This document shows, one piece after another, positions 15,777 to 53,353 of a stretch of 64,000 bases of DNA; position 1 is the stretch's first letter, and the number at the start of each line of letters is the position of its first letter. Both the position numbers and the translations under genes were made by a program. Under the pieces are notes generated by a model that was not told the origin of the DNA, did no database searches, and saw nothing but the letters and a program-made list of their open reading frames with translations. The stretch lies in NCBI GenBank assembly GCA_964354255.1, contig CAYGYX010000002.1:8697-72696 (forward strand), given 5' to 3'. The DNA is from an uncultured Acidimicrobiia bacterium. GTDB taxonomy: Bacteria > Actinomycetota > Acidimicrobiia > Spongiisociales > UBA11373.

Positions 15777-15790
15777 CGCCCGCCGCCCGG

Positions 15791-21179: not shown

Positions 21180-21767
21180 GTGAGCCCGGCCTACCTGCCT
21201 CTGCTGTCCATCCGCCGGGTGCTGGTGCCCGGAACGAGGGCGGCGTTGCCTTCCGCCCGTACGGACCTGCGGGCAGGGGAGCACGTGGTGACTGCTCTCG
21301 AGCCGGATGGAGACGAGCGGGCGGTAACCCGCTCGGTAGGCACCCTGGCTCACCTCGAGGAGGTGCGGCCCCTAGGGCCCGAGGCCGTCCTGTTGCGGCT
21401 CAGCGGCCGGCGGCTGGTCCGGCTCACGGAAGCGGAGCAGCGGGAAGGCCGGTGGTGGGCGAAGGTAGCCGAGATCGCCGAACCGAATCGGGAGGCGAGC
21501 CCTTTGATCGAAGAGGCCGAGAGGGCGGTGCGCCGGTACCTGGCCCTGCGGAGCGAGGCCGGAGAGGGCGGCGGGCCGATCGTCGAACTCAGCCGGGACC
21601 CGGTGGCCGCCTCACATGAGGTAGCCTCCAACCTGCACATCAGCTGGCCGGAAGTGCAGGACATCCTCGAGGCCGGCAGTGCCGCCGACCGGCTGCGCCG
21701 GGCGGGGGCCGTGCTCGACAGGGAAACGGAGCTGCTGCGGCGGCTCCTCGGCCGGGAAGGTACCTAG
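21180..21767 (+). CDS. LON N-terminal (substrate-binding, PUA-like) domain protein
   Basis: LPLLSIRRVLVPGTRAALP..EHVVTALEP..LAHLEEVRPLGPEAVLLRLSGRRLVRL matches the Lon N-domain pattern, with no AAA or protease domain. Confidence 0.55.
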   Translation: MSPAYLPLLSIRRVLVPGTRAALPSARTDLRAGEHVVTALEPDGDERAVTRSVGTLAHLEEVRPLGPEAVLLRLSGRRLVRLTEAEQREGRWWAKVAEIAEPNREASPLIEEAERAVRRYLALRSEAGEGGGPIVELSRDPVAASHEVASNLHISWPEVQDILEAGSAADRLRRAGAVLDRETELLRRLLGREGT

Positions 21768-22650: not shown

Positions 22651-23460
22651 GTGAGCGAGGTCTTCCGCCCCGGTGAGCCGTGCCTGCTCGTGGACGGGCG
22701 GGGCCGGCACTACCTGGTCGACCTCGACCCGGATGGTGTCTTCCAGTACCACGTGGGAGCCCTGCCGCTCGGCCGGGTGATCGGGCAGCCGGAGGGGGCG
22801 GTGCTTCGCTCGTCGGGGGAAGGGCGGCTGGTGGCATTGCGCCCCCGCCTGGCCGACTACATCCTCCGGATGCGCCGGGGAGCGCAGGTGGTCTACCCGA
22901 AGGACATCGGGCCCATCCTGCACTGGGGGGACATAGGCCCCGGGATGAGGGTCCTCGAGGCCGGCACCGGGTCCGGGGCGCTCACCATGGCTCTGGTACA
23001 AGCAGTAGGGCCCACCGGGAACGTGGTCAGTGTCGAGGAGCGGCCCGACCACGCGGCCGGGGCCCGCGCTGCCATCCTGCGCTTCTTCGGAGAGCTGCCG
23101 CCCAACCTATCGCTGCGCCTCGGAAGGGTGGAGGACGTGGTGGAAGAGGTGGCCCCCCATCGGCTGGTCCTCGACCTGCCCGAGCCGTGGCTGGTGGTAG
23201 GCCCGGCCGCCGCCGGGCTGGCCGAGGGTGGGGTGCTCACCACCTACCTGCCGACCGTTCCGCAGGTGCAGCACCTCCACGATGAGCTTCGACGCTCCCG
23301 CCGGTTCCTCGACGTCTTCACCTTTGAGATCCTGCTTCGCGAGTGGGTGGCGGAAGGCCGCTCGGTGCGGCCGGCGAGCCAGATGGTGGGTCACACCGGG
23401 TTCATCACCACCGCCCGCAGGGTGGCGCCGCTGGGAGGCGACGAAGAAGACCGGGAATAG
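22651..23460 (+). CDS. trmI: tRNA (adenine58-N1)-methyltransferase TrmI (GCD14 family)
   Basis: Carries the SAM-binding motif VLEAGTGSGALT and TrmI-like N- and C-terminal regions. The start was set at GTG 22651 (VSEVFRPGEP). The track ORF begins at 22582 with a non-conserved extension. Confidence 0.75.
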   Translation: MSEVFRPGEPCLLVDGRGRHYLVDLDPDGVFQYHVGALPLGRVIGQPEGAVLRSSGEGRLVALRPRLADYILRMRRGAQVVYPKDIGPILHWGDIGPGMRVLEAGTGSGALTMALVQAVGPTGNVVSVEERPDHAAGARAAILRFFGELPPNLSLRLGRVEDVVEEVAPHRLVLDLPEPWLVVGPAAAGLAEGGVLTTYLPTVPQVQHLHDELRRSRRFLDVFTFEILLREWVAEGRSVRPASQMVGHTGFITTARRVAPLGGDEEDRE

Positions 23461-23462
23461 GC

Positions 23463-23489
23463 GGGGCCCCGCCGGGAAGGCGGGGCCCC
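23463..23489. terminator. GC-rich perfect hairpin between the convergent trmI and ferredoxin genes (terminator-like, no U-tract)
   Basis: GGGGCCCCGCC-gggaa-GGCGGGGCCCC, an 11-bp perfect stem that starts 3 nt after the trmI stop. Confidence 0.35.
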
Positions 23490-23513
23490 GTGCCGGAGAG
23501 GCGGCGGGGCCGG

Positions 23514-23762
23514 CTACTCCTCGATGATGAAAATGCACTCGCCGGGGCACTCCTCGGCCGACTCGCGGGTGGCGTCCTCCAGGCCCGCCGGGACCTGAGC
23601 AATACCTTCGGCACCCTGCGGGCTGCCCTTGGCGGCGGCGTAGATCTTGTCGCCCTCCCGTACATAGGCCAGCCCGTCGTCCAGTAGGACGAAGACATCC
23701 GGGGCGATCTCCTCGCAGAGCCCGTCGCCGGTGCACAGGTCCTGGTCGATCCAAACCTTCAT
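23514..23762 (-). CDS. ferredoxin (single-cluster, FdxA-like)
   Basis: MKVWIDQDLCTGDGLCEEIAPDVF...CPGECI cysteine pattern. The start was refined to MKVW (residue 12 of the track ORF). Confidence 0.65.
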   Translation of the reverse strand: MKVWIDQDLCTGDGLCEEIAPDVFVLLDDGLAYVREGDKIYAAAKGSPQGAEGIAQVPAGLEDATRESAEECPGECIFIIEE

Positions 23763-23885
23763 TGTTCCCCTCTGTAGTCGGGATTCGGCAAGCATTGTAT
23801 CGGCCGTGCTCGACCTCCCGGTCCACTCCCGAGACAGTAGGGTGCCGGCCGTATACTGACCGGCGGCCTACCCGGGAGGGCCCCC

Positions 23886-25607
23886 GTGCCCGAGGGCGAG
23901 AGCTCTGCCGAAGAGTCCGCTCAGACCATCAGGATGCTGGAAGAGGAGATCGCCATCCTCCGGCGGCGGCTGCAGGATGCCCCCCGCCGGGTGCGAGTCC
24001 TGGAGGAGCGCCTGCTCGAGGCGAAGGGCCGGCTCTCGCAGGCGACGTCCCAGAACGAACGCCTCTCGGCGGCTTTGCAGGAAACCCGCGAGCAGCTGAC
24101 GCTGCTGCGGCGCGAAGTGGAGAAGCTGACCGCCCCACCCAACCCCTTCGCCGTGATCGAGCGGGTCAACCCCGACGGCACGCTCGACGTGTTGACGGGA
24201 GGCCGCAAGCTGCGGGTGGGGGTCCAGCCCTCCATCGAGGTCAAAGAGCTGGACCGCGGCCAGGAGGTACTGCTCAACGAGGCCATGAGCGTGATCGACG
24301 TGGGCACATTCGACGCGGGGGGCGAGGTGACCACGGTCAAGGAGGTCCTGGGGGACGGCCGGGTCATCGTCGTCGGGCCGGCCGACGACGAACGGGTCGT
24401 GGGCCTGGCCGGGCCCATGGAGCCGGTTCCCCTGCGGGTAGGGGACGCGGTTCGCCTGGATGCTCGTACCGGGCTGATCCAGGAGCGCCTGGTGCGCCCG
24501 GAGGTCGAAGAGCTGGTGCTGGAGGAGATACCCGACATCACCTACGAGCAGATCGGCGGCCTGACGGCTCAGATCGAGACAATCCGCGACGCCGTCGAAC
24601 TGCCCTACCTCTACAAGCACCTCTTCGAGGACTACGAGCTCAGCGCCCCCAAGGGGGTGCTCCTCTACGGGCCCCCCGGCTGCGGGAAGACCCTCATCGC
24701 CAAGGCGGTGGCCAACAGCCTGGCCGGGGCGGTGGCGGCCAAGACCGGGTCGGTCGACGCCCGCTCCTACTTCCTCAACATCAAGGGCCCCGAGCTCCTG
24801 AACAAGTACGTCGGCGAGACCGAGCGCCAGATCCGCCTCATCTTCGCCCGGGCGAAGGAGAAGTCCGACGAGGGGGTCCCGGTCATCGTGTTCTTCGACG
24901 AGATGGATTCCCTCTTCCGCACCCGGGGGAGCGGCGTCTCGTCGGACGTTGAATCCACCGTGGTACCGCAGCTGCTGTCCGAGCTGGACGGGGTGGAGGG
25001 CCTCAAGAACGTGATCGTGATCGGGGCCTCCAACCGCGAGGACCTCATCGACCCGGCCATCCTGCGCCCCGGCCGACTCGATGTGAAGATCAAGGTGGAA
25101 CGCCCGGACGTGGCGGCCGCCCGGGAGATATTCGGGATCTACCTGCGGCGCAGCCTCCCCTTCGCCGATGACGAGCTGGGGGCTGCCGGGGGCGACCTCT
25201 CCGCTCTGATCGCCTCCCTGATCGACCGGGTGGTGGAGGCCATGTTCGCCACCGTCCACGAGAACCGCTTCCTCGAGGTGACCTATGCCAATGGGGACAA
25301 GGAGACCCTCTACTTCCGCGACTTCGCCTCCGGGGCGATGATCGAGAACGTGGTGCGCCGGGCGAAGAAGGCGGCAATCAAGCGGGAGATCGCCGGCGGG
25401 GCCAGGGGAGTGGGAGTCGGCGACCTGCTGGGGGCGGTGCGCCAGGAGTACCGCGAGCACGAGGACCTCCCCAACACCACCAACCCCGACGACTGGGCCC
25501 GCATCTCCGGCAAGAAGGGCGAGCGCATCGTCTACGTGCGCACCCTGGTGGAGGGAGACACCCCCCACCGCGCCATCGAGGCGATCAGCACGGGCCAGTA
25601 CCTGTGA
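23886..25607 (+). CDS. mpa: proteasome-associated AAA ATPase Mpa/ARC
   Basis: N-terminal coiled coil, Walker A GPPGCGKT, Walker [10 protein letters not shown] and a C-terminal GQYL proteasome-docking motif. It starts at a GTG. Confidence 0.9.
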
Positions 25608-27103
25608 GCCGGTCGGTCCGCAAGATCCTCGGGACCGAGACCGAGTTCGGCATCGCGGTGAGGGGACGGCCGGGCTACGACCCGGTCATGGCCAGCAGCC
25701 TGGCGGTGGCCGCCTACACCGGGCCTTCCCGCACCAACTGGTCCTCCGAGGAGGAGACGCCGGGGCGCGACGCCCGCGGGTTCGCCCGGATTGCCGGCGA
25801 GCCGGACACCGGCATGCTCAACGCGGCGCTGAGCAACGGCGCCCGCCTCTACGTCGACCATGCCCACCCCGAGTACTCGACCCCCGAGTGCTTCGACCCT
25901 CTCGAGGGAGCCCTCTACGACAAGGCGGGCGAGCTGATCATGGCTCAGGCGGCGGCTGCCGTCGAACTCCCTCCGGGCGAGCGGCTGCTGATCTACAAGA
26001 ACAACAGTGACGGGAAGGGCAACTCGTACGGGGCGCACGAAAACTACTTGATGGCCCGGTCGGTGCCCTTCGAGGAGATCGCACGCCACCTCACCGCCTT
26101 CCTGGTCACCCGACAGGTGCTCACCGGGGCGGGGAAGGTGGGGAGCGAGAACGGCCGCCCCCGGGTTTCCTACCAGATCAGCCAGCGGGCCGACTTCTTC
26201 GAGGAGGAGGTCGGGCTGGAGACCACGGTCCGGCGCCCCATCAACAACACGCGGGACGAGCCCCACGCCGATCCTGCCACCTACCGGCGCCTGCACGTGA
26301 TCGTCGGCGACGCGAACCTCTCCGAGCAGCAGATCTTCCTCAAGCTGGGCGCCACCGCCTTGGTGCTGGCCGCCCTCGAGATGGGGACGCTGGGCAAGCC
26401 GGTGGCGCTCGAGAGCCCGGTCGAGTCCCTCTGGCGAATCAGCCACGACCCCACCTTGCGCCGGACCGTCCGCCTGGCCGGCGGGCGCAGCGCGACGGCA
26501 CTCGATCTGCAGCACGAATACCTGAGCAGGGCGGCGGCCGGTGCCGGCGGGGAAGTCGGGGACCCAGTGTCCGGCCGGGTGCTGGCCCTTTGGGAGGAGG
26601 CGCTGGCGGATCTCGAGCGCGATCCGCTCTCCACCTCCGGCTACCTGGATTGGACGGCCAAGCTCGCCTTGCTCGAGGGGTATCGGGAGCGCGATCGCCT
26701 TGCCTGGGATCACCCCAAGCTGCGGCTGCTCGACCTCCAGTACCACGACGTCGACCCGCAGCGCAGCCTGTACGGGCGGCTGGTAGCGGCCGGGCGAATG
26801 AAGCGGCTCTTCAGTGACGAGGAGATCGAACGGGCCACCGTGGCCCCACCGGGGGGGACGCGCGCCTACTTCCGCGGGCGGTGCGTCGCCAAGTACGGTG
26901 AGGCCGTGGTGTCGGCCAACTGGGACTCGCTGGTGCTGGACACGGGCCGGGCTGCTCTCCAACGGGTGCCTATGATGGACCCGCTGCGCGGGGGCCGGGA
27001 GAGCGTGGCCGACCTCATAGATCGGTGCGCCTCGGCCGCCGACCTCGTCCGTGCCCTCGGAGGAAACAATGGCCGAACAGGAACGCAAACACCCCCGTCG
27101 TAG
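25604..27103 (+). CDS. dop: Pup deamidase/depupylase Dop
   Basis: PafA/Dop carboxylate-amine ligase fold ([23 protein letters not shown]). At 499 aa it carries the Dop-specific insertion, and it is positioned immediately upstream of pup. Confidence 0.85.
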
Positions 27104-27263
27104 CGAGGCTCGCCGGGAGGCTGCGGCCGAGCTCGTGACCCCACGGGACGTCGGGGGCGAGCTGACCGAGAAGATCGACGGCCTGCTCGAAGAGATCGAC
27201 AGCGTTCTCGAGGAGAATGCCGAGGAGTTCGTCAGGGACTACGTGCAGAAGGGGGGCCAGTGA
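27069..27263 (+). CDS. pup: prokaryotic ubiquitin-like protein Pup
   Basis: 64 aa, [43 protein letters not shown], with the C-terminal GGQ. The start lies 35 nt inside the dop 3' end. Confidence 0.85.
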   Translation: MAEQERKHPRRSEARREAAAELVTPRDVGGELTEKIDGLLEEIDSVLEENAEEFVRDYVQKGGQ

Positions 27264-28048
27264 TCACCGATCCCCCGGGAGCCCCCGGGTCCCCCGTGCC
27301 GGGCGAGAGCTTCACCGCGCTCTTGCGGGCCCAGGGGATGGAGCCCCGCTGGACCCTCCCCTCCGACGCGTCTCTCCTCGACGCCCCGGAAGGCACCACG
27401 GTGCTGGCCTTCCGCTACGTCGACGGGGTGATCATGGCCGGCGACCGGCGGGCCACGGCCGGCAACGTCATTGCCTATCGCACCATGCAGAAAGTATTCC
27501 CGGCCGATGCATACTCGGCAGTAGGCGTTTCCGGGACGGCCGGGGTGGGGGTCGAGCTGATACGCCTCTTCCAGACCGAACTGGAGCACTACGAGAAGCT
27601 CGAAGGAAGTCGCCTCAGCCTGGAGGGCAAGGCCAACCACCTGGCCGCCATGGTACGGGCCCACCTCCCTATGGCCTTCCAGGGCCTGGTGGTCGTACCC
27701 CTGTTCTGCGGGTTCGATGAGGACGGCGGGCAGGGGCGGCTCTACAGCTTCGACGTGGTCGGGGGGCGCTACGAAGAGACCGACTACGCCGCCACCGGCT
27801 CGGGAGGCCGCGATGCCAAGGCCTACCTCCGCACCGCTTTCCGGGAGTCCTTGAGCGAAGAGGAAGCGCTGCGGCTGGCCATCGAGTCCCTGGTCGCCGC
27901 CGCCGAGGAAGACACCGCGACCGGAGGACCGGACCTGCAGCGCGGGATCTACCCCAATGTGGCAGTCGTGTCGGCAGAGGGATACCGCGAGATCGATGAG
28001 GAGCGGGTGGCGGCCGTGTCTCGCGAGGTGATGGGAGCCGCGCGATGA
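27260..28048 (+). CDS. prcB: 20S proteasome beta subunit (with propeptide)
   Basis: Propeptide then G/TTVLAFRY (Thr1 nucleophile), with the Ntn-hydrolase fold. GTGA overlap with pup. Confidence 0.9.
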   Translation: MITDPPGAPGSPVPGESFTALLRAQGMEPRWTLPSDASLLDAPEGTTVLAFRYVDGVIMAGDRRATAGNVIAYRTMQKVFPADAYSAVGVSGTAGVGVELIRLFQTELEHYEKLEGSRLSLEGKANHLAAMVRAHLPMAFQGLVVVPLFCGFDEDGGQGRLYSFDVVGGRYEETDYAATGSGGRDAKAYLRTAFRESLSEEEALRLAIESLVAAAEEDTATGGPDLQRGIYPNVAVVSAEGYREIDEERVAAVSREVMGAAR

Positions 28049-28719
28049 ACCTCCCCTTCTACGTTCCCCCCGAACAGCTGATGAAGGACCGGGCGGAATA
28101 CGCCCGCAAGGGAATCGCCCGGGGCAAATCGATAGCGGCCGTGGCCTACGCCGACGGCATCCTGCTACTCGCCGAGAACCCGAGCGGCACGCTCCACAAG
28201 ATCGGGGAGATCTACGACCGCATCGCCTTCGCCGGGGTAGGGAAGTACACCGAGTTCGAGGCGCTGCGCGTGGCCGGCATCCGCCATGCGGACCTCAAGG
28301 GGTACGCCTATGCCCGCCGCGACGTGACGGCCAAGGGACTGGCCAACGCCTACGCACAGGTGCTCGGCCAGATCTTCACCCAGGAGATCAAGCCGTACGA
28401 GGTGGAGATCATGGTGGCCGAGGTCGGGAAGGACAGCGGAGCAGATCTCCTGTTCAAGGTCACCTACGACGGCACCCTCTTCGCCGAGGAGCACTACTCG
28501 GCCATCGGCGGCCAGGAGGAACGGCTGACGGCCTTCCTGCAGGAGCACTTCCGTGCTGGAGCCTCCCTACCCGAGGCGCTGGGCTGGGCAGTGGGCGCCT
28601 TCGAGGCGGCCAGCTCGCAGAGGTTCGAGCCCCAGGAGTGGGAAGCCGCGGTTGTCGACCGCACCCTGGGACGGCGCACCTTCCGGCGTCTCCGGGGCGA
28701 GGAGATGACGCCGGCCTAG
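28045..28719 (+). CDS. prcA: 20S proteasome alpha subunit
   Basis: [29 protein letters not shown], the alpha-subunit N-terminus. ATGA overlap with prcB. Confidence 0.9.
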   Translation: [224 protein letters not shown]

Positions 28720-29081
28720 AGCAGCCGGGCCACCACGAGCCAGAGGGTCAGGACCAGGAGCAGCGCCCCCAGGGCCACCGTCAGCGGGCTCCAGCCGGCC
28801 TTCGGCGGGACCGGGGCCCGTTCCGGCTCGCCGTCCGCCAACTCGAGGTGGCTGATGTCCCCCTCGGCCACGAGGCTGCGAGCATCGTCGAGGCGGCTGA
28901 GGGGCACCCAGACCTGGGTGGCGGCCATCTCCCCGATGGTGAGCCGATAGGGCCCAAGAGACTCGCCCCGCAGGCGCGACTCGATACCCTCGGAGCGCAG
29001 GAGAGCGGCACACAGGTCGGCGGCGGCCGGATCGCTCACCGTGGCCAGCAGGAGGAAGGGCTCGGGGTCGGTCGAGGGCAC
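28716..29081 (-). CDS. DUF2007-like (putative signal-transducing) small membrane protein, antisense within the PPS locus
   Basis: This is the C-terminal 121 aa of antisense track ORF 28716..31091. VPSTDPEPFLLLATVSDPAAADLCAALLRSEGIESRLRGESLGPYRL... ends with a TM helix (WSPLTVALGALLLVLTLWLVVARLL). It has a GTG start at 29081. It fills the otherwise empty 428-bp prcA-pafA gap. The remainder of the 791-aa ORF is antisense to pafA and was rejected. Confidence 0.4.
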   Translation of the reverse strand: MPSTDPEPFLLLATVSDPAAADLCAALLRSEGIESRLRGESLGPYRLTIGEMAATQVWVPLSRLDDARSLVAEGDISHLELADGEPERAPVPPKAGWSPLTVALGALLLVLTLWLVVARLL

Positions 29082-29147
29082 CTCCGGATCGTATCGGCCT
29101 CTGCCTCCTAACCGGCCAACGGCCGAGGCCGGGGTACCCTGCCCGGC

Positions 29148-30503
29148 GTGGAACGGCGCATCGTCGGAATGGAGAACGAGTACGGGGTGACCTGCACCCT
29201 GCGGGGGCAGCGGCGCCTGTCCGCCGATGAGGTGGCCCGCTACCTCTTCCGGCGGGTGGTCTCCTGGGGCCGGTCCTCGAACGTCTTCCTCGAGAACGGG
29301 GCCCGCCTGTACCTGGATGTGGGCAGCCATCCGGAGTACGCCACCCCGGAGTGCGACAGCCTCTACGAGTTGGTGGCCCACGACAAAGCGGGGGAGCGGG
29401 TGCTGGAGGGCCTGTTGCACTCCGCCGAGCGCCGGCTGGAGGAGGAGGGCATCAGGGGCCAGGTGTACCTCTTCAAGAACAACACCGACTCGGCCGGGAA
29501 CTCGTATGGCTGCCACGAGAACTACCTGGTGGCCCGGCAGGGGGACTTCCAGCACATCCTGGACACCCTCATCCCATTCCTGGTCAGCCGGCAGGTGTTC
29601 TGCGGCGCGGGCAAGGTGCTCCAGACCACGCGCGGGCCGGTGTACTGCCTGGCGCAGCGCGCCGAGCACATCTGGGAGGGCGTCTCTTCGGCCACTACCC
29701 GCAGCCGTCCGATCATCAACACCCGCGACGAGCCTCATGCCGATGCCGAGCGCTACCGGCGGCTGCACGTCATCGCCGGCGATTCCAACATGAGCGAGTA
29801 CGCCACCTACGCCAAGGTGGGGAGCACCCTGGCCCTGCTGCAGATGCTGGAGGAGGGGGTGGTGTTCCGCGACCTCGGCTTGGAGAACCCGATCCGGGCG
29901 CTGCGCGAGATCAGCCGCGACGTCACCTGCCGGCGCAGGGTGCGGCTGGCGAACGGCCGGGAGCTCTCCGCCCTGGACATCCAATGGGAGTACCTGGAGC
30001 GGGTGCTCCGCTACTCGCGGGCGCATTCCTTCCCGGCGCAGGTCGAGGCCGCGGTCGCGATGTGGGAGCACTTGCTCACCGGCCTGGAGAAGGACCCGCT
30101 CTCTCTGCGGCGCGAGTGCGACTGGGTCGCCAAGTACCACCTCGTGGAAGACTACCGAGCGCATCGCGACCTCGACCTGGGGGACCCGCGGGTCTCCTTG
30201 CTCGATCTCACCTACCACGACGTCAGCCGGGAGCGCGGCCTCTACTACATCCTGCAACGGCGCGGAATGGTGGACCGGGTGGTCACCGACGAAGACGTGG
30301 CGCGGGCCCTGCTCGACCCGCCCCAGACGACCCGCGCCCGCCTGCGTGGAGAGTTCATCAAGGCGGCCAAGGCGCGCCAGCGTGATATCACCGTCGACTG
30401 GGTGCACCTGAAGGTGAACGACCAGGCACAGCGCACGGTGCTGCTCAAGGATCCCTTTCGCGCCTTCGACGACCGCGTCGACCGTCTCATCGCCGGGCTC
30501 TGA
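29148..30503 (+). CDS. pafA: Pup-protein ligase PafA
   Basis: [31 protein letters not shown]. At 451 aa it has no Dop loop, and it sits downstream of prcA. Confidence 0.9.
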
Positions 30504-30563
30504 GGGCACCCTGTCCGCCCGACGGCTTCCACCCACGCCCGGGTCCGGATACAGTCGGCGGCG

Positions 30564-31487
30564 ATGCAGCGAGTGATCGAACGGATCCTGAACCTGCTCG
30601 CCTTCCTGCTCACCGTCGGCCGGCCGGTGACCGCCGAGGAGATCCGGCACACCGTGGCCGGCTACGGACAGGAGGGAGACGAGGCCTTCCGGCGCACCTT
30701 CGAACGCGACAAGGACCTGCTGCGCAGCCTGGGCATCCCGCTGCGGCTGGTCTTCACCGACCGCTGGGAGGTGGAACAGGGCTACCTGGTACCCAAGGAT
30801 GAGTATGCCCTGGCGGACCCCGGCCTCACCGACGAGGAACGAGCGGCGCTGGGGCTGGCCGCCCAGGTAGTGCGCATCGGGGGCCTGGCCTCCGAGCCGG
30901 CGGCTCTCTTCAAGCTGGGGGGGGCTCCCCCGGCAGGCTCGGGAGAGCCCGTGGGCGCCGACCTGGGCGCGGCCTCGGCCGACCTGCCGCTGCTCTTCGC
31001 GGCGGCGGCCGAGGCCCGGGAGGTGGCTTTCACCTACCTCGGCAAGGCTCGCCGAGTCCGACCCTACGGCCTGGTCCACCGGCGGGGCCACTGGTACCTG
31101 GTGGGCCCCCCGGCGGGGGAGACGGCGGTGCGAACTTTTCGCGTCGACCGGCTGGAAGCGCTCCGACTCGGCAATCGGCCCCAGGCCTTCTCCCGTCCCG
31201 CCGGTTTCCGAGCGGCGGACGCCATCCCCGAGGCTCCCTGGGAAGGCGGCGAGGAGGAGGTGGAGGTGACGGTCCGCTTCGATCGCGAGGTGGCCTGGTG
31301 GGCGCGGCGGCAGCTGACCGCCGCCGCCGCAGTCGTCGAGGAGCCCGGCGGTTCCCTGGTGGCCCGCCTGCCGGTGCGAGCCGTTGGTGCCTTCATCGGA
31401 TGGATGGTCGGGTTCGAGGATGCCGCCGAGGTGTTGGAGCCGACGGAAGTACGACAGCGCCTGCTAGCCCATGTGGAGGGCCCGTGA
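30564..31487 (+). CDS. pafB: proteasome accessory factor PafB (HTH + WYL domain regulator)
   Basis: N-terminal wHTH (RILNLLAFLLTVGRPVTAEEI) plus a WYL domain (HWYLVGP). Confidence 0.8.
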   Translation: MQRVIERILNLLAFLLTVGRPVTAEEIRHTVAGYGQEGDEAFRRTFERDKDLLRSLGIPLRLVFTDRWEVEQGYLVPKDEYALADPGLTDEERAALGLAAQVVRIGGLASEPAALFKLGGAPPAGSGEPVGADLGAASADLPLLFAAAAEAREVAFTYLGKARRVRPYGLVHRRGHWYLVGPPAGETAVRTFRVDRLEALRLGNRPQAFSRPAGFRAADAIPEAPWEGGEEEVEVTVRFDREVAWWARRQLTAAAAVVEEPGGSLVARLPVRAVGAFIGWMVGFEDAAEVLEPTEVRQRLLAHVEGP

Positions 31488-32416
31488 GCAGCAGCCGGAC
31501 CGCCGATCGTCTCTCCCGCATCCTGGGCATGCTTCCCTGGGTCATCGCCCACCCGGGCGCCCGGGTAGCCGAGGTGTGCGAGCGGTTCGGCTACACGAGG
31601 GCGGAGCTGGCCCGCGACCTCAACCTGGTCTTCGTGTGCGGACTGCCCGGCTACGGCCCCGGGGATCTCATGGTCGCCTACATCGACGGAGATGAGGTAG
31701 TGGTGGACCTGGCCGACTACTTCGCCCGACCGGTGCGACTCGCTCCTGCCGAAGCCCTGCTGTTGCTTGCCGCCGGGATGGCCATGATCTCGACGGGGGA
31801 GGCCCCGGACGCGCTGGTATCGGGTGTCGCCAAGCTGCAGGCAGCCCTCCTGCCCGATGGGCAGCCTCTGGCGGTCGACCTCCCCGCGCCGCCACCGCTG
31901 CTGCGTATGCTCGGAGAGGCCGCGGCCGGGGGCCGGGTGGTCCAGATCACCTACACCTCGCTGGCCACCGGCGAGACCACCCGGCGGGAGGTGGAGCCGT
32001 GGCGGGTGTTCTCGGCGCTCGGCAACTGGTATCTGACCGGGTGGTGCCGCCTGGCCGGGGATGAGCGCCTGTTCCGGGTCGATCGCATCCGAGAAGCGGC
32101 TCTTACCGGCGGGGATTTCGCGCCACCCGCCACACTCCCCCCGGCCGAGGTGCGCTTCGTGCCTCGGGCGGAGGACGTACAGGCTTTGATACGCCTGGGG
32201 GCCGCAGCCGGGTGGGTGGCCGAGTACTACCCGGTGGAAGTCGTGTCGCAGGACGACGCGGGCACCGTGGTCAGGTTCACCGCCTCGGACCCGTCCGTCG
32301 GCGCCCGTCTGCTGGTGCGTTTGGGCGGCGATGCCGAGTTGCTGGAGGGCGAACAGGTGGCGGCGGCCGCCGCCGACCTGCGGGCCCGGATCAGGCGCCG
32401 CTACGAGGCGACGTAG
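31484..32416 (+). CDS. pafC: proteasome accessory factor PafC (HTH + WYL)
   Basis: The GTG start at 31484 overlaps the pafB TGA. Carries wHTH (DRLSRILGMLPWVIAHPG) and WYL (NWYLTGWC). The track ORF start at 31298 was rejected. Confidence 0.8.
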   Translation: MSSSRTADRLSRILGMLPWVIAHPGARVAEVCERFGYTRAELARDLNLVFVCGLPGYGPGDLMVAYIDGDEVVVDLADYFARPVRLAPAEALLLLAAGMAMISTGEAPDALVSGVAKLQAALLPDGQPLAVDLPAPPPLLRMLGEAAAGGRVVQITYTSLATGETTRREVEPWRVFSALGNWYLTGWCRLAGDERLFRVDRIREAALTGGDFAPPATLPPAEVRFVPRAEDVQALIRLGAAAGWVAEYYPVEVVSQDDAGTVVRFTASDPSVGARLLVRLGGDAELLEGEQVAAAAADLRARIRRRYEAT

Positions 32417-32515
32417 CCCCCGGTGACTATAAGGGCAATGGTCATTCAGTACCCGTGCAAGCGCTCCGATAAGCCGGTCAGAACCGGTAGCCGCCCGCTC
32501 TGGAGAAGCGCCTCG

Positions 32516-32806
32516 ATGACCACCATCCGCACCTCATGCCCGCTCTGCGGCGACGTGGAACTGGCCCCGGCCGACCTCTCGTTGCGACTGGCCCCCTGCC
32601 GGGGGACTGGCACCTATCACTTCCGGTGCCCTCATTGCGAAGAGGTGCGGCAGCGCCCCGCCGGTCACCGCGTCGTCAGCATCTTGCTGGCCACCGGCGT
32701 GATGTACGAGGTGGTCGACGAGGAGACCCCGATCACCGAAGGGGAGATTCGGCACTTCGTGGACGGGCTGGCCCGGGACACCTGGCAGGAGCACCTCATC
32801 TCCTGA
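32516..32806 (+). CDS. hypothetical zinc-ribbon protein (CxxC..CxxC)
   Basis: MTTIRTSCPLCGDVE...HFRCPHCEE. It occupies the position held by tatA/tatC in the M. tuberculosis pafC-helY interval. Confidence 0.4.
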   Translation: MTTIRTSCPLCGDVELAPADLSLRLAPCRGTGTYHFRCPHCEEVRQRPAGHRVVSILLATGVMYEVVDEETPITEGEIRHFVDGLARDTWQEHLIS

Positions 32807-32955
32807 GCCCTGCCATCAGACCGAGCGTGAAGAGGGCGGCCCGCGGGCCGCTCTCGGCATGCCGGGCCGGGCGGCAACCCTTCCTACCATGGTCGAGTGC
32901 CTCCACACCGTCTGCGCTCGATCAACCCGCCGCGCACCGCTGAGCAGGCCCGGCC

Positions 32956-35493
32956 ATGAGCGCCGTTGGGTACCTGCAGGGGCTTCCCTTTCGCGCCGAT
33001 CGCTTCCAGGTAGACGCGGCCGAGGCCATCGATCGCGGCGAGACCGTGGTGGTTTCGGCGCCCACCGGGTCGGGCAAGACGGTGGTGGCTGAGGCGGCCA
33101 TCGCCCTGGCCCGGCGGCGCGGGGAGCGAGTGCTCTACACCACCCCCCTCAAGGCGCTGTCGAACCAGAAGTACGCCGATCTGCGCGCCCAGCATGGGCC
33201 GGCCGCCGTCGGTCTCCTCACCGGCGACAACTCCATCAACGGTCGGGCTCCCGTCGTCGTGATGACCACCGAGGTGCTCCGCAACATGATGTACGCCGCC
33301 AGCCCCGACCTGGCCGATGTGGGGATCGTCGTCCTCGACGAGGTCCACTATCTCCAGGACCGGGCGCGCGGGCCGGTTTGGGAGGAGATCATCATCCACC
33401 TTGATCGGGCGATTCGCCTGGTCTGTCTCTCCGCCACGGTGGCCAACGCCGCCGAGTTCGCCGGCTGGGTGGAGGCCCGCCGGGGGCCAACCGCCCTGGT
33501 CGTCGAGGGGGAGCGCCCCATCCCCCTGTCGTCGGAGTACCTGCTGCGCGACCGCTGGGAGGGCGGCCGCCTGCGTCTCCTGCCGGTCTTCGGGGAGGGC
33601 GAGGGGCGCCGGTCCAACCCACGGCTCGTCGCCATGCTGCGCCGGACGGGCGAACTGGAGCATCGCTACGCCGCGCCGCGTCGCACCGAGACCTGCGAGT
33701 TCCTGCATCGGGAGGGGCTGCTCCCTGCGATCTACTTCATCTTCTCCCGGGCGGGTTGCGCCGCGGCCTCCGCCCAGGTAGTCGAGCGCGGCCTTCGGCT
33801 CACCACCCGGGAGGAGGCCGCCGAGATCCGGCGCGCCGCCGCCGAGCGCACCGCCCACCTCTCGCCCGGCGATCTCAAAGTGCTCGGCTACGGCCGCTGG
33901 CTGGCCGGCCTGGAGGCCGGCGTGGCGCCCCACCACGCCGGGCTGGTCCCCGCCTTCAAGGAGACCGTGGAATACCTATTCGCCGCCTGCCTGGTGCGCC
34001 TGGTTTTCGCCACCGAGACCCTGTCGCTCGGCATCAACATGCCCGCCCGCTCCGTGGTCCTCGAGAGCCTGTACAAGTTCAGCGGCGAGCAGCACGAGCT
34101 CCTCCAGCCCGGGGACTACACACAACTGACCGGGCGCGCCGGTCGGCGGGGCATCGACCGGCTGGGCACGGCCATCGTCCTGCACTCGCCCTACCTGCCC
34201 TTCGAGCGCGTCGCCGCCATCGCCGCGGCTGGGGCCCATCCCATGCGCTCCAGCTTCCGGCCCACCTACAACATGGCGGCCAATCTGATGGCCGGCTACC
34301 CGCAGGACCAGGCAGAGCGGCTCCTGAACGCCTCCTTTGCCCAGTTCCACGAGGACCGGCTGGCCGGCGACCTGGTCGCGATGATCGAGGACGAGGAGGC
34401 ACGGCTGGCCGCCGACCGTCAAGCCGCGCACTGCGAGTTGGGAGACACCTGGGACCCCAGTGAGCAGGCCCCTTCCGGGCACGACCAGATAATGAGCGCC
34501 TTCGTCTCCTCAACGGCGGCGGGCGATGTGCTCGCCTGGCCGCTGGAGGGCGGACGCGAGATGCGCCAGGTCGTGGTGGCCCGTGGGCATGGGAAGCGCC
34601 CGCGCCTCCTGACGATCGCCGACGACGGGAGCCTGCATCGGCTGCCTCCCGACAAAGTGCCGGCCGCCGCCGCCGTGGCCGGCAGGCTCGATCTGCCCGA
34701 GCCCTATCGGCCCCGCGAGCCCGACTACCGCCGCGAGGTGGCGGCCCTGCTCCGCCGCTGGCAGGCGGGAGGGACGATCCTTCGGCCGGCCTACGCGTCC
34801 GGGGCGTCCGTCCCCGGCGGCGCGGCCGCCTGCCCCGACCTGGCGGCTCACCTGAGGGCGGTTCGCTCGGCCCATCGGCGGGAAACGCGCCTAGAAGCCC
34901 TCCGCCGACGCCAGCGGGTGAGCGGAGCCGGCATGGTTCCCCGGCTCCGGGCCATAGTGGCGCTACTGCAGGACTGGGGCTACGCCGACGACTGGCGCCT
35001 CACTCCCGGTGGCAGGCGCCTCCGCTTCATCTACAACGAGCTCGACCTGCTCCTGGCCGAGTCGCTGGAGCGGGGGTGCTTCGATGGTCTCGATGGCCCC
35101 GAGACCGCCGCCCTGGCCTCGCTCTTCACCTTCGAGCCGCGAGCCGAGGCAGCCCGGTCCGTCTGGCCCACCCCGCGCTTGCAGGAGCGGGCGGAACGTG
35201 TCGCCGAGCTCGCGACCCGACTCGCCTCCGCCGAGGAGGCCGCCGGGTTGTCCCCGACCCGGGCTCCCGAGGCAGGCTTCGCCACGATCGCCTACCGTTG
35301 GGGTAGCGGCGCCGGGCTGGAGGACCTCTTCGGGGAGGAGGGAGTCGGGGTGGGAGACTTCGTGCGCAACTGCCGGCAGCTGATCGACCTTCTTCGCCAG
35401 CTCAGCGACGCGGCCCCGCGGCTCGCGCCCGTCCTCTCACAGGCCCTCGCCGCCGTGGACCGGGGAGTGGTGGCAGCCTCGGGAGCAGTATGA
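32956..35493 (+). CDS. helY: Ski2-like DExH-box RNA helicase HelY
   Basis: Motif I APTGSGKT, motif II DEVH and SAT (LSATVAN), in 845 aa with a C-terminal DSHCT-like region. Confidence 0.85.
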   Translation: MSAVGYLQGLPFRADRFQVDAAEAIDRGETVVVSAPTGSGKTVVAEAAIALARRRGERVLYTTPLKALSNQKYADLRAQHGPAAVGLLTGDNSINGRAPVVVMTTEVLRNMMYAASPDLADVGIVVLDEVHYLQDRARGPVWEEIIIHLDRAIRLVCLSATVANAAEFAGWVEARRGPTALVVEGERPIPLSSEYLLRDRWEGGRLRLLPVFGEGEGRRSNPRLVAMLRRTGELEHRYAAPRRTETCEFLHREGLLPAIYFIFSRAGCAAASAQVVERGLRLTTREEAAEIRRAAAERTAHLSPGDLKVLGYGRWLAGLEAGVAPHHAGLVPAFKETVEYLFAACLVRLVFATETLSLGINMPARSVVLESLYKFSGEQHELLQPGDYTQLTGRAGRRGIDRLGTAIVLHSPYLPFERVAAIAAAGAHPMRSSFRPTYNMAANLMAGYPQDQAERLLNASFAQFHEDRLAGDLVAMIEDEEARLAADRQAAHCELGDTWDPSEQAPSGHDQIMSAFVSSTAAGDVLAWPLEGGREMRQVVVARGHGKRPRLLTIADDGSLHRLPPDKVPAAAAVAGRLDLPEPYRPREPDYRREVAALLRRWQAGGTILRPAYASGASVPGGAAACPDLAAHLRAVRSAHRRETRLEALRRRQRVSGAGMVPRLRAIVALLQDWGYADDWRLTPGGRRLRFIYNELDLLLAESLERGCFDGLDGPETAALASLFTFEPRAEAARSVWPTPRLQERAERVAELATRLASAEEAAGLSPTRAPEAGFATIAYRWGSGAGLEDLFGEEGVGVGDFVRNCRQLIDLLRQLSDAAPRLAPVLSQALAAVDRGVVAASGAV

Positions 35494-36371
35494 CCTGGTG
35501 GGTGGTGGTCAACCCGGCGGCGGGGACGCACCAGCAGTGGGAGCCGCGGGTGCGCGGCGCGCTTGCGAGCCGCGCGCTGGAAGGGGTGGTCAACGTCTCG
35601 GAGTCGGCCGAGCACCTCCGGGAGCTGGTGGCGGCCGGCGTCGCGGCCGGGGCGACCCGCTTCGTCGCGGCCGGGGGAGACGGGACCATCAGCCTGCTGG
35701 CCGATGCCCTGCTCTCCCATCCTTGGGCGGCGCCGCCGACCCTCGGCATCCTCCCGGCCGGATCGGGGTGCGATTTCATCCGCACCTTCCGCTTCTCCCA
35801 GGTCCTCGAGGAGGCGGCCGACCACCTGGTGGGGGAGCAGACCGTGCCAGTCGACGTCGGAGTGGCCGAGGGCGCCTGGGGCGTCCGCCGCTTCCTGAAC
35901 GTCCTCGACATCGGGGTGATCGCCGCCACGGTGCGCACCGCCGAGGGACCCACCCGACACCTGGGGCGCTTTCGCTACAAGGCGGCTTTCTGGGTCACCC
36001 TGCCGCTGTTCCGCACCACCCGGCTCACCGTGGAGATGGAACGCCGCACCTTCGCGGGCAGGGCCAACACGGTCGTCTTCGCCAACGGGCAGTACTTCGG
36101 CTTCAACATGAATGTGGCTCCCCGGGCCTCTCCGAGTGACGGCCTGCTGGACGTCCAGGTCTTCACCGGGCCCAAGACGAGTGCGCTCTCGCTGCTGCCC
36201 AAGGTGAGCCGCGGCCGCCACCTGGCTCACCCTCTGGTCCACCGGTTCCGTGCGGCCGCGGCGACCGTGGTCACCGAGCGGCCCTGGCCCATCGAGGTGG
36301 ACGGTGACTACCTGGGGGAAACCCCCGTCACGGTGCGGATCGAGCCGCGTGCGCTGCTCCTCAAGGTCTGA
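35490..36371 (+). CDS. diacylglycerol-kinase-family lipid kinase (DAGK_cat, YegS-like)
   Basis: Carries the DAGK_cat GGDGT motif (AAGGDGTISLLADAL). ATGA overlap with helY. Confidence 0.75.
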   Translation: MTWWVVVNPAAGTHQQWEPRVRGALASRALEGVVNVSESAEHLRELVAAGVAAGATRFVAAGGDGTISLLADALLSHPWAAPPTLGILPAGSGCDFIRTFRFSQVLEEAADHLVGEQTVPVDVGVAEGAWGVRRFLNVLDIGVIAATVRTAEGPTRHLGRFRYKAAFWVTLPLFRTTRLTVEMERRTFAGRANTVVFANGQYFGFNMNVAPRASPSDGLLDVQVFTGPKTSALSLLPKVSRGRHLAHPLVHRFRAAAATVVTERPWPIEVDGDYLGETPVTVRIEPRALLLKV

Positions 36372-36427: not shown

Positions 36428-36871
36428 ATGGTGCCCCCCCGTACCCCCCCGCCCGAGGACGATCTCGAGGAAGAAGAGCCGGAGGCTGAGGGCTGGCTCG
36501 ACGAGGAAGTCGAGGAACTCGACGAGGAGCCCGAACCCGATTTCGCCGCCGTGGTGGAGGTGGAAGAGGAAGAGGAAGAGGAAGAGGCGTACGAGGAGGG
36601 GGAGGCCGAGGAGGCCGAGGAGGCCGAGGAGGAGGCCCTCGACGAGCTCGAAGCCGAAGAGCTCGACATGCTCACCGAAGACGAGGCAGCGGAGTCGCTG
36701 CCGGTCGATGAGGTAGAGGAGCTGCGTCAGCTGCGCCGGGAGGCGATCGAGCTCGAGTTGGGAGCCGACGGGGCGGGGGAGGGTGAGTTCGTCTGCAGCG
36801 GCTGCTTCCTGGTCAAGCGCATCACTCAGCTCGCCGACAAGCGGAAGAGGCTCTGCCGGGACTGCGTGTGA
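36428..36871 (+). CDS. DUF4193 acidic protein with a C-terminal Cys4 motif
   Basis: Asp/Glu-rich N-terminal 100 aa and then EFVCSGCFLVKRITQLADKRKRLCRDCV. Confidence 0.6.
   Translation: MVPPRTPPPEDDLEEEEPEAEGWLDEEVEELDEEPEPDFAAVVEVEEEEEEEEAYEEGEAEEAEEAEEEALDELEAEELDMLTEDEAAESLPVDEVEELRQLRREAIELELGADGAGEGEFVCSGCFLVKRITQLADKRKRLCRDCV
36563..36637 (+). repeat. in-frame tandem codon repeats (GAAGAG)x4 and (GAGGCCGAG)x3 that encode poly-Glu / Glu-Ala
   Basis: Read directly from the sequence, inside the DUF4193 gene. Confidence 0.6.
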
Positions 36872-37740: not shown

Positions 37741-38490
37741 CTACCAAGTGCCGGCCGCGACCGAGCGGGGAAGGGGCTGCGGGTTGAGGGTGTTGGCCAG
37801 CAGGCGCCGGCGCAGCGGCAGAGCGATCAGCACCCCGAAAAGGAACCCAGCGACGTGCGCTTCCCAGGCGATCCCGGAGGCCGCGTCGACGAGCAGGAAC
37901 TGGCTGACGATCCAGATCCCCAGGAAGGCGACGGCGGGAATGGCCACGATGCGGAACAGCACCAGAGTCAGCACCAGGTGGCGCGGGAAGAGGACCAGGT
38001 AGGCGCCCATCACCCCGGCGATCGCCCCGCTCGCTCCGACCAGAGGGATCGTGGTGTCCGGGTTGGCCCAAACGAACCCCGCCGTGGCAGCTATCCCCGA
38101 AGCGAGGTAGAACAGCAGGTAGGCGAAGGGCCCAAACGCCTCCTCGACGTTGTTGCCGAAGATCCACAGGCTCCACATGTTGAACAGCAGGTGGGCAGCG
38201 CCCCCGTGCAGGAACATGGAGACCCCGGCCGCCAGCCACACGTTCTTGCCGCCGAAATAGGGGGTGGAGGGCTCTTCGCGGCAGACCCCCCCGTTGATCT
38301 CGGCCAGATCGAGCGCGTCGCCGGTGGTCAGCTCGCAGGCGATGGCGGCCCGCTCGTACAGGAACTCGGCTTCCTCCTGGGTCCCGCTCGCCGGCTGCAG
38401 CGCGAAGAACACGATCGCGCAGCCGGCGATGATGGCCCAGCTGATGAGGGGGCGGGCCCGGGTGGGGTTGACATCGCGAATCGGCAGCAA
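37741..38490 (-). CDS. rhomboid-family intramembrane serine protease
   Basis: Carries the GxSG motif (GASGAIAGVMGAYL) and a downstream His in TM6 (HVAGFLFG), across 6 TM segments. Confidence 0.8.
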   Translation of the reverse strand: MLPIRDVNPTRARPLISWAIIAGCAIVFFALQPASGTQEEAEFLYERAAIACELTTGDALDLAEINGGVCREEPSTPYFGGKNVWLAAGVSMFLHGGAAHLLFNMWSLWIFGNNVEEAFGPFAYLLFYLASGIAATAGFVWANPDTTIPLVGASGAIAGVMGAYLVLFPRHLVLTLVLFRIVAIPAVAFLGIWIVSQFLLVDAASGIAWEAHVAGFLFGVLIALPLRRRLLANTLNPQPLPRSVAAGTW

Positions 38491-38657: not shown

Positions 38658-39436
38658 CCCGCCGTCGACTCGACCTGGAGTTGGTGCGGCGCGGACTGCT
38701 CACTACCCGCTCCGCGGCACAGCGGGCAATCGCCGAAGGGCGGGTCCTGGTCGGCGGCATGCCTGCCACCCGGTCGGCAACGCTGGTGGATGAGCAAGTG
38801 GCCCTGTCGCTCGTCCGGGAAGGCCCGCAGTGGGCGAGTCGCGGCGGCGTCAAGCTGGCCGCCGCCCTGGAGGCGTTCGCCGTGGACCCCTCCGGCCGGC
38901 GGTGCCTCGACGTGGGCGCCTCCACCGGCGGCTTCACCGACGTGCTCGTGGCCCGGGGGGCGGCCAGCGTGGCTGCGGTCGACGTCGGTTACGGCCAACT
39001 CGACTGGCGGCTGCGCTCCGACCCCCGGGTGAGGGTCTTCGACCGCACCAACTTCCGTACGGCCGACCCGGGGGCACTGGGAGCTCCCTTCGACATGGCC
39101 ACCATGGACGTCTCTTTCATCTCGATCCGCCTGCTGGCCGCCAATCTGGCGGCTTGCGGCCGGCCCGGCACCGACTACGTTGTCCTCGTGAAGCCCCAGT
39201 TCGAGGTTGGGCGAGAGCACGTTGGTCGCGGCGGCCTGGTCACCGACCCTCTCCGGCAGGCGTCCGCGATCGACGGCGCGGCCCGGGCGCTGGCCGCGGT
39301 GGGCATAGGCCCCATCGGGGTCTGCGCCTCACCGATCGCCGGCACTACGGGCAATCGCGAGTTCTTCCTGCACGGCCGACACGGTGCCGGTCCGGCCGTC
39401 GACCGAGCGTCGGTCGAGGCAATGGTGACCCGATGA
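38654..39436 (+). CDS. tlyA: 16S/23S rRNA (cytidine-2'-O)-methyltransferase TlyA (S4 + FtsJ-like)
   Basis: S4 domain (T)RRRLDLELVRRGLLTTRSAAQRAIAEGRVLVGGMP plus the MTase motif LDVGASTGGFTDVL. The conserved N-terminus begins 9 codons upstream of the first canonical start (TTG 38681). The proposed start is CTG 38654. A conservative alternative is 38681..39436. Confidence 0.75.
   Translation: MTRRRLDLELVRRGLLTTRSAAQRAIAEGRVLVGGMPATRSATLVDEQVALSLVREGPQWASRGGVKLAAALEAFAVDPSGRRCLDVGASTGGFTDVLVARGAASVAAVDVGYGQLDWRLRSDPRVRVFDRTNFRTADPGALGAPFDMATMDVSFISIRLLAANLAACGRPGTDYVVLVKPQFEVGREHVGRGGLVTDPLRQASAIDGAARALAAVGIGPIGVCASPIAGTTGNREFFLHGRHGAGPAVDRASVEAMVTR

Positions 39437-40258: not shown

Positions 40259-40266
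<8 letters not shown>
39433..40266 (+). CDS. nadK: NAD kinase
   Basis: Carries GGDGT (VVAVGGDGTVLEA) and NGHLGFLT motifs. The start was refined to MRLALIIHPE (ATGA overlap with tlyA). The track ORF start at 38830 was rejected. Confidence 0.85.
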
Positions 40267-43592
<3,326 letters not shown>

Positions 43593-43598
43593 GGCACG

Positions 43599-45091: not shown

Positions 45092-45098
45092 GGCCCTG

Positions 45099-53298: not shown

Positions 53299-53353
53299 CG
53301 GAGCTCCGCCTCCTGCCGGGCTTCGTCGGCGTTCCGGCGAGGAAGGTTGAGGA

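Follow-up and report, generated by a model that had tools for sequence, protein, structure and literature searches.

For the Pup-proteasome system (PPS), the locus and components, together with the GQYL motif, have been described in a review (PMC8223512), and in Mycobacterium tuberculosis the respective genes are mpa (Rv2115c), dop-pup-prcB-prcA (Rv2112c-Rv2109c) and pafA-pafB-pafC (Rv2097c-Rv2095c) (PMC8223512). Here, we analyze the PPS locus of an uncultured Acidimicrobiia bacterium within a 64,000-nucleotide (nt) stretch of contig CAYGYX010000002.1 (assembly GCA_964354255.1; hereafter, the window), where a preliminary description, made from the letters of the DNA, had recognized at positions 23886-32416 a complete PPS deviating from the M. 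tuberculosis layout. In M. tuberculosis H37Rv, pafC is followed by tatA, tatC and helY, in that order; two genes lie between mpa and dop in M. tuberculosis, the PrcB propeptide comprises 57 amino acids (aa) and PrcA is 248 aa long.

Common to the two loci are the gene set and the gene order, a 64-aa Pup ending in GGQ, the C-terminal GQYL of Mpa, a PrcB propeptide followed by Thr1, separate pafB and pafC genes beside pafA, and helY located downstream. The window locus is, however, far more compact, with mpa and dop overlapping by 4 nt, and the interval between prcA and pafA harbors one small antisense gene, in contrast to the M. tuberculosis stretch that contains PE/PPE genes and an insertion sequence. 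The PrcB propeptide (45 aa) and PrcA (224 aa) are shorter than in M. tuberculosis. Furthermore, tatA and tatC are missing, a gene for a zinc-ribbon protein (ZnR) is present, and the organism belongs to the class Acidimicrobiia rather than to the Actinomycetes. Because of this class membership, M. tuberculosis is the wrong reference: each of the deviations pointed out in the preliminary description is factually present, but the appropriate comparison is with other Acidimicrobiia.

Relatives were collected by a scan with back-translated PafA, keeping one genome per species (80 loci), and the window proteins were placed on these loci by tblastn. The 80 best PafA loci all come from Acidimicrobiia or from unclassified Actinomycetota metagenome-assembled genomes (MAGs), the highest identity being 84%. 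The norm in Acidimicrobiia is trmI-fdx(antisense)-mpa-dop-pup-prcB-prcA-...-pafA-pafB-pafC-(ZnR)-tatA-tatC-helY; the spacing of prcA, pafA and pafBC varies within the class, and the layout of the window otherwise is the class norm. Locus L001 (RBG_16_68_21, MELR01000013.1), the closest relative at the species level, shares with the window the order trmI-fdx-mpa-dop-pup-prcB-prcA-DUF2007(antisense)-pafA-pafB-pafC-ZnR-...-helY-dagK, a PafA that is 84% identical, a Pup ending in GGQ and a 13-nt block 5' of ZnR. In L001, however, ZnR and helY are still separated by tatA (112 aa) and tatC (238 aa), where the window has a 149-nt spacer with a short upstream open reading frame (uORF).

We conclude that the region is very probably a complete, canonical PPS of an Acidimicrobiia bacterium in whose clade tatA and tatC (tatAC) were excised, with promoter capture. 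The locus is an ordinary, complete PPS; the system is already well known and, in Acidimicrobiia, is already automatically annotated in public genomes, and little is added here for the PPS itself. Judging from sequence comparison, the flagged deviations have mundane causes, namely, lineage-specific accessory genes and an apparently clade-specific tatAC excision accompanied by promoter capture. Further work might be worthwhile on a single item, the uncharacterized zinc-ribbon family with its candidate WhiG-type promoter.

The Pup-proteasome genes

Open reading frames (ORFs) were mapped and genes were called by third-codon-position GC content across the window, and families were assigned using Pfam gathering scores and NCBIfam equivalog cut-offs. 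All called genes have a third-codon-position GC of 0.85-0.93 (pup was missed by the caller and is unscored), so the PPS frames are genuine coding sequences and not frame artifacts, a concern that had been raised for the GGQ and GQYL termini, both of which were found to be in frame. The set mpa-dop-pup-prcB-prcA-pafA-pafB-pafC, with helY downstream, that the preliminary description had called complete is upheld at the equivalog level, and in the searches with profile hidden Markov models (HMMs) proposed there, every PPS gene scored above curated cut-offs, the six core PPS genes doing so in both Pfam and NCBIfam. All these genes are on the + strand.

The mpa (arc) gene (23886-25607) encodes a 573-aa proteasomal AAA+ ATPase (TIGR03689, 745 bits against 505) in which two OB domains and an AAA module (Pfam AAA and Prot_ATP_ID_OB_N/C) are combined with an N-terminal coiled coil, with the Walker A motif GPPGCGKT at residue 262, the pore loop KYVGE at residue 307, the Walker B motif DEMD at residue 338 and the C-terminus ...STGQYL. 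The protein aligns over its full length with M. tuberculosis Mpa (7px9, residues 22-609 of the latter; 2e-202). A second protein with a terminal GQYL, resembling Bpa, was sought in the window and none was found; Mpa alone ends in QYL.

The Pup deamidase/depupylase Dop (dop, 25604-27103) and the Pup ligase PafA (pafA, 29148-30503) have the lengths previously given for them, 499 and 451 aa, respectively, and are separated from each other in that each passes its own equivalog cut-off only: Dop scores 595 bits with TIGR03688 (cut-off 492) and 370 bits with the PafA model, whereas PafA scores 684 bits with TIGR03686 (cut-off 551) and 405 bits with the Dop model. Dop is similar, essentially over its full length, to Acidothermus Dop (4b0r, 7e-164). 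In two related MAGs (L004, JBFKDW010000009.1; L005, JAOTYB010000030.1), pafA is inverted relative to all other PPS genes.

The pup gene (27069-27263) has a GGAGG Shine-Dalgarno sequence 6 nt upstream and shares its first 35 nt with the end of dop, an arrangement common to the relatives. The 64-aa product, ending in ...YVQKGGQ as noted previously, matches Pfam Pup (3.5e-19, 69.9 bits against a cut-off of 27) and the Pup C-terminus model TIGR03687 (65 bits against 41). Across the species-level loci, Pup ends in GGQ in 39 cases and in GGE in 27. The clade that lacks tatAC is itself mixed, with GGQ in the window and L081/L082 and GGE in L085-L087; given this variation within a clade, the need for deamidation by Dop flips over short evolutionary times.

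The 20S beta subunit gene prcB (27260-28048; TIGR03690, 307 bits against 192) encodes a 262-aa protein in which Thr1 is residue 46 (APEG followed by TTVLAF, in frame) and Asp17 and Lys33 are present; the propeptide followed by Thr1 that had been described is therefore 45 aa long. Alignment with the mature Rhodococcus and M. tuberculosis beta subunits starts at the same residue 46. The 20S alpha subunit (224 aa) is encoded by prcA (28045-28719; TIGR03691, 301 bits against 139). The 4-nt overlaps reported in the preliminary description are genuine and occur at five junctions, namely, mpa/dop (GTGA, the dop start overlapping the mpa stop), pup/prcB (GTGA), prcB/prcA (ATGA), pafB/pafC (GTGA) and helY/dagK (ATGA).

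The pafB (30564-31487) and pafC (31484-32416) genes encode, respectively, a 307-aa HTH-WYL-WCX regulator subunit (Pfam WYL and WCX) and a 310-aa protein with HTH_PafC (96 bits against a cut-off of 32), WYL and WCX domains, and, as expected of PafBC, are adjacent paralogs beside pafA that overlap by 4 nt. PafB resembles mycobacterial chains named 'transcriptional regulator-like protein' (9fnd and 7p5x; 8e-29) and Arthrobacter PafBC (6sj9; 1e-17); the match to PafB/PafBC chains spans most of the protein and, because the alignment to the solved chains starts at residue 5-6, covers the HTH region. No NCBIfam model matched PafB or PafC. Neither pafA nor pafB has a Shine-Dalgarno sequence; TACCCT (29135-29140) is located 7 nt before the GTG of pafA, and TACAGT (30550-30555) is located 8 nt before the ATG of pafB. 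The context of the pafA start suggests that it is leaderless, and the TANNNT hexamers 7-8 nt before the two starts suggest leaderless transcripts, with separate pafA and pafBC promoters.

As judged by the protein families and their conserved residues, Dop would convert the C-terminal Gln of Pup (GGQ) to Glu by deamidation, and PafA would join Pup-Glu to substrate lysines. The N-terminal coiled coil of hexameric Mpa would capture Pup, and its AAA ring, with the Walker A/B motifs and the KYVGE pore loop, would thread the substrate into a PrcA7-PrcB7-PrcB7-PrcA7 core, on which Mpa is predicted to dock via its C-terminal GQYL. Maturation of PrcB would involve removal of the 45-residue propeptide, exposing Thr1, and Dop would also undo pupylation. 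By analogy with mycobacteria, where it drives a LexA-independent DNA-damage regulon, PafB together with PafC would form a WYL-domain transcription activator.

Absence of tatA and tatC upstream of helY

In L001, the interval between pafC and helY holds ZnR (95 aa), tatA (...LIVFGPKRLPE...) and tatC, with the tatC stop overlapping the helY start. In the window, helY (32956-35493, + strand) encodes an 845-aa Ski2-like DEAD/DSHCT helicase (Pfam DEAD, Helicase_C and DSHCT), and tatA and tatC, reported as absent between pafC and this gene, are not detectable elsewhere in the 64 kb either: a regular expression for the TatA motif (FGPxxLP) applied to all frames returned nothing, and the best E value in tblastn, for which two TatC and one TatA of Acidimicrobiia served as queries, was 0.5. 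A regular expression for twin-arginine motifs, a simple and weak test, found no Tat substrates among the N-termini of the window proteins. The distance from pafC to helY is 539 nt, less than half of the smallest distance among the relatives (1191 nt).

The preliminary description had proposed comparing gene orders for a lineage-wide loss of tatAC at this position. Such a loss did not occur: with TatA and TatC of L001 as queries, tatC was located directly upstream of helY (median distance, 69 nt) in 54 of the 55 species-level loci, out of 80, that had a detectable helY, so the absence is confined to the narrow clade of the window and, independently, to L015. In this second case (13467-15991), an antisense gene for a GT2 glycosyltransferase and a gene for a 525-aa polytopic membrane protein are found between ZnR and helY.

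Within the clade of the window, all 11 contigs that reach helY (L081-L091), with ZnR proteins 78-92% identical to that of the window, run directly from ZnR to helY across spacers of 88-152 nt; L092 ends before helY. The contigs come from four ENA samples (L081-L084), four Logan runs (L085-L088), JGI (L089), a further ENA sample (L090) and NCBI (L091, GCA_040961635.1). Chimeras do occur in metagenome assemblies, the exact PafA of the window has no record in the contig collection, and an assembly or binning artifact, in the form of a collapsed or chimeric contig, could in principle mimic a deletion. However, this explanation is extremely improbable because the same ZnR-helY junction is present in assemblies from at least nine samples and four repositories (ENA, Logan, JGI and NCBI), with ZnR proteins that differ from that of the window by 8-22%, and because the junction is orderly and conserved, including a hairpin, a -10 element, the uORF and the ATGA overlap.

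As reconstructed from the gene neighborhoods, the ancestral order is pafC-ZnR-tatA-tatC-helY, as in nearly all Acidimicrobiia, and the tatA-tatC coding block would have been excised in the clade of the window in a recent, clade-specific event. The tatA-tatC-helY adjacency by the PPS is found in mycobacteria and is nearly universal in Acidimicrobiia; given this near-universality in the second class, the linkage is ancient and older than thought, and its break in one clade represents a natural test of the dependence of helY on the tat promoter.

The putative deletion scar (32885-32959, + strand) consists of a -10-like TACCAT (32885-32890), followed, after 6 nt, by a GTG (32897), at which a frame of 20 codons begins, VPPHRLRSINPPRTAEQARP. 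This frame ends in a TGA that overlaps the helY ATG (ATGA, 32956-32959). In the relatives that keep tatAC, a TANNNT hexamer (for example, TACCAT, TAGACT or TAGCAT) precedes the tatA start by 6-8 nt and a Shine-Dalgarno sequence is missing in 19 of 22 loci, and the combination of such a hexamer with no Shine-Dalgarno sequence is a signature of actinobacterial leaderless transcripts, for which PMC3898074 provides background. The same scar layout is present in L081-L084, L085/L088, L089 and L090; the uORFs of the relatives comprise 17-20 codons and encode poorly conserved peptides, and their length differences are multiples of three. In L091, the equivalent start is an ATG that reads into helY in frame and extends the protein by 15 residues. 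The uORF looks like what remains of the leaderless tatA start after the excision, and the old leaderless-type tatA promoter and start codon may now serve helY. Because the uORF ends in the ATGA overlap, expression of helY probably still proceeds from the former tatA signal, through termination-reinitiation. The deletion would then exemplify promoter capture, whereby a leaderless promoter and its start were kept and have become the opening of a short uORF that is coupled to the gene behind it.

Several points weigh against this view of the locus as a canonical PPS modified by excision and promoter capture. Every step of the mechanism outlined for the PPS comes from homology. The mycobacterial RecA-NDp motif, which Gamulin in 2004 and Muller in 2018 are said to have given as TGTCRGTG-N8-TANNNT, has no match in the 64 kb with up to one mismatch (0.25 expected by chance); the PafBC regulon may be located elsewhere, or the motif may be different in Acidimicrobiia. 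The excised tatAC genes would have either moved elsewhere or been lost, and the 64-kb window is compatible with both outcomes. Furthermore, a 20-codon open frame is unremarkable in itself in DNA of 70% GC, and because the sequences are related by descent, the conservation of the uORF frame is suggestive but does not amount to proof.

The zinc-ribbon gene

The gene for the uncharacterized zinc-ribbon protein ZnR (CxxC...CxxC; 32516-32806, + strand) encodes 96 aa, with the start at ATG 32516 fixed by the homologs; a 127-aa ORF starting with GTG was ruled out as the gene on the same basis. A word-indexed search yielded 334 relatives, none with a Pfam domain or a meaningful name, and an exhaustive profile search yielded 1347 clusters (50% identity). 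When 56 sequences were aligned, 30 columns proved invariant, including C8, C11, C38 and C41, and these four cysteines support metal binding in general, with no named family indicated. Among the Pfam zinc-ribbon families, the best match, to Zn_ribbon_FGT1_2, scored 17.4 bits, under the cut-off of 27; a profile search of the PDB returned spurious matches to the C2H2 Cys spacing only, with no informative fold match, NCBIfam has no relative of the protein, and a cluster look-up provided no useful annotation. The AlphaFold2 model is confident (pLDDT 89.8) and consists of five strands followed by three helices.

At 70% GC, stop-free frames are common on both strands, and the frame of the antisense DUF2007 ORF runs for 791 codons, which raises the question of whether one or both of ZnR and this ORF are spurious high-GC open frames. 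We consider this highly improbable. The third-codon-position GC of ZnR is 0.87, and the number of homologs and clusters, the invariant columns and the confident structural model all argue for a real protein. For the DUF2007 ORF, the third-codon-position GC is 0.92 over the last 121 of the 791 codons only, the domain scores above the Pfam cut-off, and the gene was called by independent pipelines in the clade relatives that cover the interval.

A zinc-ribbon ORF had been described as sitting between pafC and helY instead of tatAC. The ORF exists, but "instead" is misleading: the ZnR family HMM detected the gene in 26 of the 80 species-level loci, and tatC follows it in 23 of the 24 loci with enough downstream sequence, tatA being also detected in most. 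That ZnR functionally replaces tatAC could be surmised from its location in the pafC-helY interval, where M. tuberculosis has tatA-tatC; apart from the co-occurrence with tatC, however, this conjecture is at odds with the exceptional locus, L015, which carries glycosyltransferase genes, with the lack of similarity of ZnR to TatA or TatC, and with the prediction of a soluble protein with a fold of beta-sheet and helices and no hydrophobic segment flagged, and there is very little chance that it is correct.

Alternatively, ZnR could belong to the paf operon as an accessory factor of PafBC, rather than being an independent gene linked to tatA and helY. In the window and its closest relatives, ZnR has the orientation of pafC and follows it after 99 nt, a hairpin is present only beyond ZnR, and some gene callers join pafC and ZnR into one product (P0254 and P0262). 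The operon assignment is nonetheless unlikely. Where genes intervene, as in L012, L021, L047 and L052, ZnR stays with tatA, which is 40-300 nt away, and not with pafC, at a distance of 1.5-3.4 kb; in the close relatives L002, L003, L006 and L007, pafBC is present and tatA directly follows pafC, with no ZnR; ZnR has its own conserved promoter-like element; and the linkers of the apparent fusions are out of frame and Arg/Pro-rich, as is usual for miscalls. Overall, ZnR adjoins tatA in 23 of the 23 informative loci that keep tatC, L015 being the sole other informative locus. Because it stays by tatA and is absent from some paf loci, ZnR is an accessory gene tied to the tatA-tatC-helY block, and the gene neighborhoods indicate that it is neither a replacement of tatAC nor an obligatory paf gene. 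As candidate fusions of ZnR, we also considered ZnR-TatA (P0193) and ZnR-WYL (P0254 and P0262), all of which look like read-through miscalls.

On the 3' side of ZnR, a GC-rich hairpin with a 10-bp stem is predicted (32832-32855, + strand), and L081, L089, L090 and L091 have a corresponding hairpin, with another sequence in its stem, in the same place. The hairpin is probably a terminator without a U-tract, and its location behind ZnR fits ZnR as a transcription unit of its own. A terminator scan of 23400-33100, with a tool blind to terminators that lack a U-tract, found no excess over chance and left this hairpin uncalled.

A candidate WhiG-type promoter

The spacer between pafC and ZnR contains a 13-nt block, AATGGTCATTCAG (32437-32449), which occurs once in the window and is exactly conserved in L001 (13279-13291), L081-L089, L091 and L092, with one base off in L090; outside this block, the spacer has diverged among the block-bearing loci. 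Here, we identified a candidate sigma-28/WhiG-like promoter of ZnR, TTCA-N16-TCCGATAA (32445-32472, + strand), which begins inside the 13-nt block and has one mismatch per element. The WhiG/FliA consensus has been given as a -35 element T(A/C)AA, N16 and a -10 element GCCGATAA or, in another form, as a -35 element CTCA, N16-17 and a -10 element GCCGAACT (PMC12871210; PMC8325347), and the published definition of a WhiG site calls for a -35 CTCA or T(A/C)AA, N16-17 and a -10 GCCGA, with no more than one mismatch and not over 200 nt from the start codon (PMC12871210). With two mismatches, one per element, the window site falls outside this definition; compared with the consensus, it is degenerate, yet conserved across the clade.

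We anchored 33 non-redundant ZnR upstream regions on the shared CCGA(T/A), the fixed-distance partner of which is CTCAAG, TTAAA or TTCAG. Conserved sites of this type precede ZnR across Acidimicrobiia, in loci within the range L010-L074. A strict WhiG match is present in 19 of the 33 regions, compared with 0.8% of 185-nt windows drawn at random from these loci, and these 19 Acidimicrobiia sites match the WhiG/FliA strings exactly through GCCGA, 35-90 nt from the first Cys codon. A relaxed pattern was found in 27 of the 33 regions against 0.32 expected in shuffles. The anti-WhiG factor RsiG has been reported in three of four Acidimicrobiales (PMC8325347), so that a WhiG-type sigma factor plausibly exists in the class. 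From these sequence patterns, the WhiG-type promoter of ZnR is a lead, the only one worth following in this locus, and not a demonstration. If real, it would put ZnR under c-di-GMP/RsiG control and make the ZnR family a candidate conserved sigma-28/WhiG target in a class in which that regulon is unstudied. A tentative and rather doubtful possibility is that ZnR represents an undescribed, widespread Acidimicrobiia family of WhiG-controlled adaptors or regulators of Tat export or HelY; the persistence of ZnR beside helY after the tatAC deletion points slightly towards HelY.

An imperfect inverted repeat, TGACTAT / ATGGTCA (GTGACTAT-N6-AATGGTCA, 32423-32444), immediately precedes the -35-like element, with which it overlaps, and is kept in L081, L085 and L089-L092; this repeat may be an operator. 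A scan of 23400-33100 for sigma-70 promoters, with a tool blind to actinobacterial TANNNT and leaderless promoters, found none, and a search of 32380-32980 against Rfam returned nothing at E = 1 or better.

The antisense gene and the wider surroundings

The small antisense gene that had been placed between prcA and pafA is present (28716-29081, - strand) and encodes a 121-aa protein with a DUF2007 domain (PF09413, 31.7 bits against a cut-off of 25.7, residues 12-73). It is convergent with prcA, the two stop codons sharing the palindrome CTAG (TAG at 28717-28719 on the + strand and at 28716-28718 on the - strand). With one C-terminal hydrophobic transmembrane segment, the protein is predicted to be membrane-anchored; as for ZnR, its coding status has been weighed above. 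All clade relatives with coverage from prcA to pafA (L081, L082, L085-L087 and L089-L092) have the gene in the same place, and 8 of the 80 species-level loci have it as well; by this distribution, it appears confined to close relatives, and its position is the sole tie to the PPS.

On the other side of the locus, an 82-aa ferredoxin (23514-23762, - strand; Pfam Fer4_15, 2e-17) is encoded on the trmI side, divergently from mpa. A ferredoxin gene between trmI and mpa is present in 46 of the 80 Acidimicrobiia loci and is a conserved neighbor outside the PPS. Downstream, helY overlaps by 4 nt a diacylglycerol-kinase-like gene (dagK, 35490-36371, + strand; DAGK_cat and YegS_C).

Across the whole window, a tRNA-Pro (GGG) at 53224-53299 is the only Rfam match that reaches the gathering score, and nothing in the surroundings points to a mobile element. 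A few genes upstream of mpa, a 195-aa protein with a LON substrate-binding (N-terminal) domain is encoded (21180-21767, + strand), in the same position as in the closest relatives, L001 and L003-L005. Genes for a DUF4193 protein (36428-36871) and a rhomboid protease (37741-38490, - strand) precede a conserved housekeeping block (38798-45452) that encodes an FtsJ/TlyA-like methyltransferase, NAD kinase, a RecN-like SMC ATPase and CTP synthase, as well as a NUDIX hydrolase, a XerD-type recombinase and a DksA/TraR zinc-finger protein.

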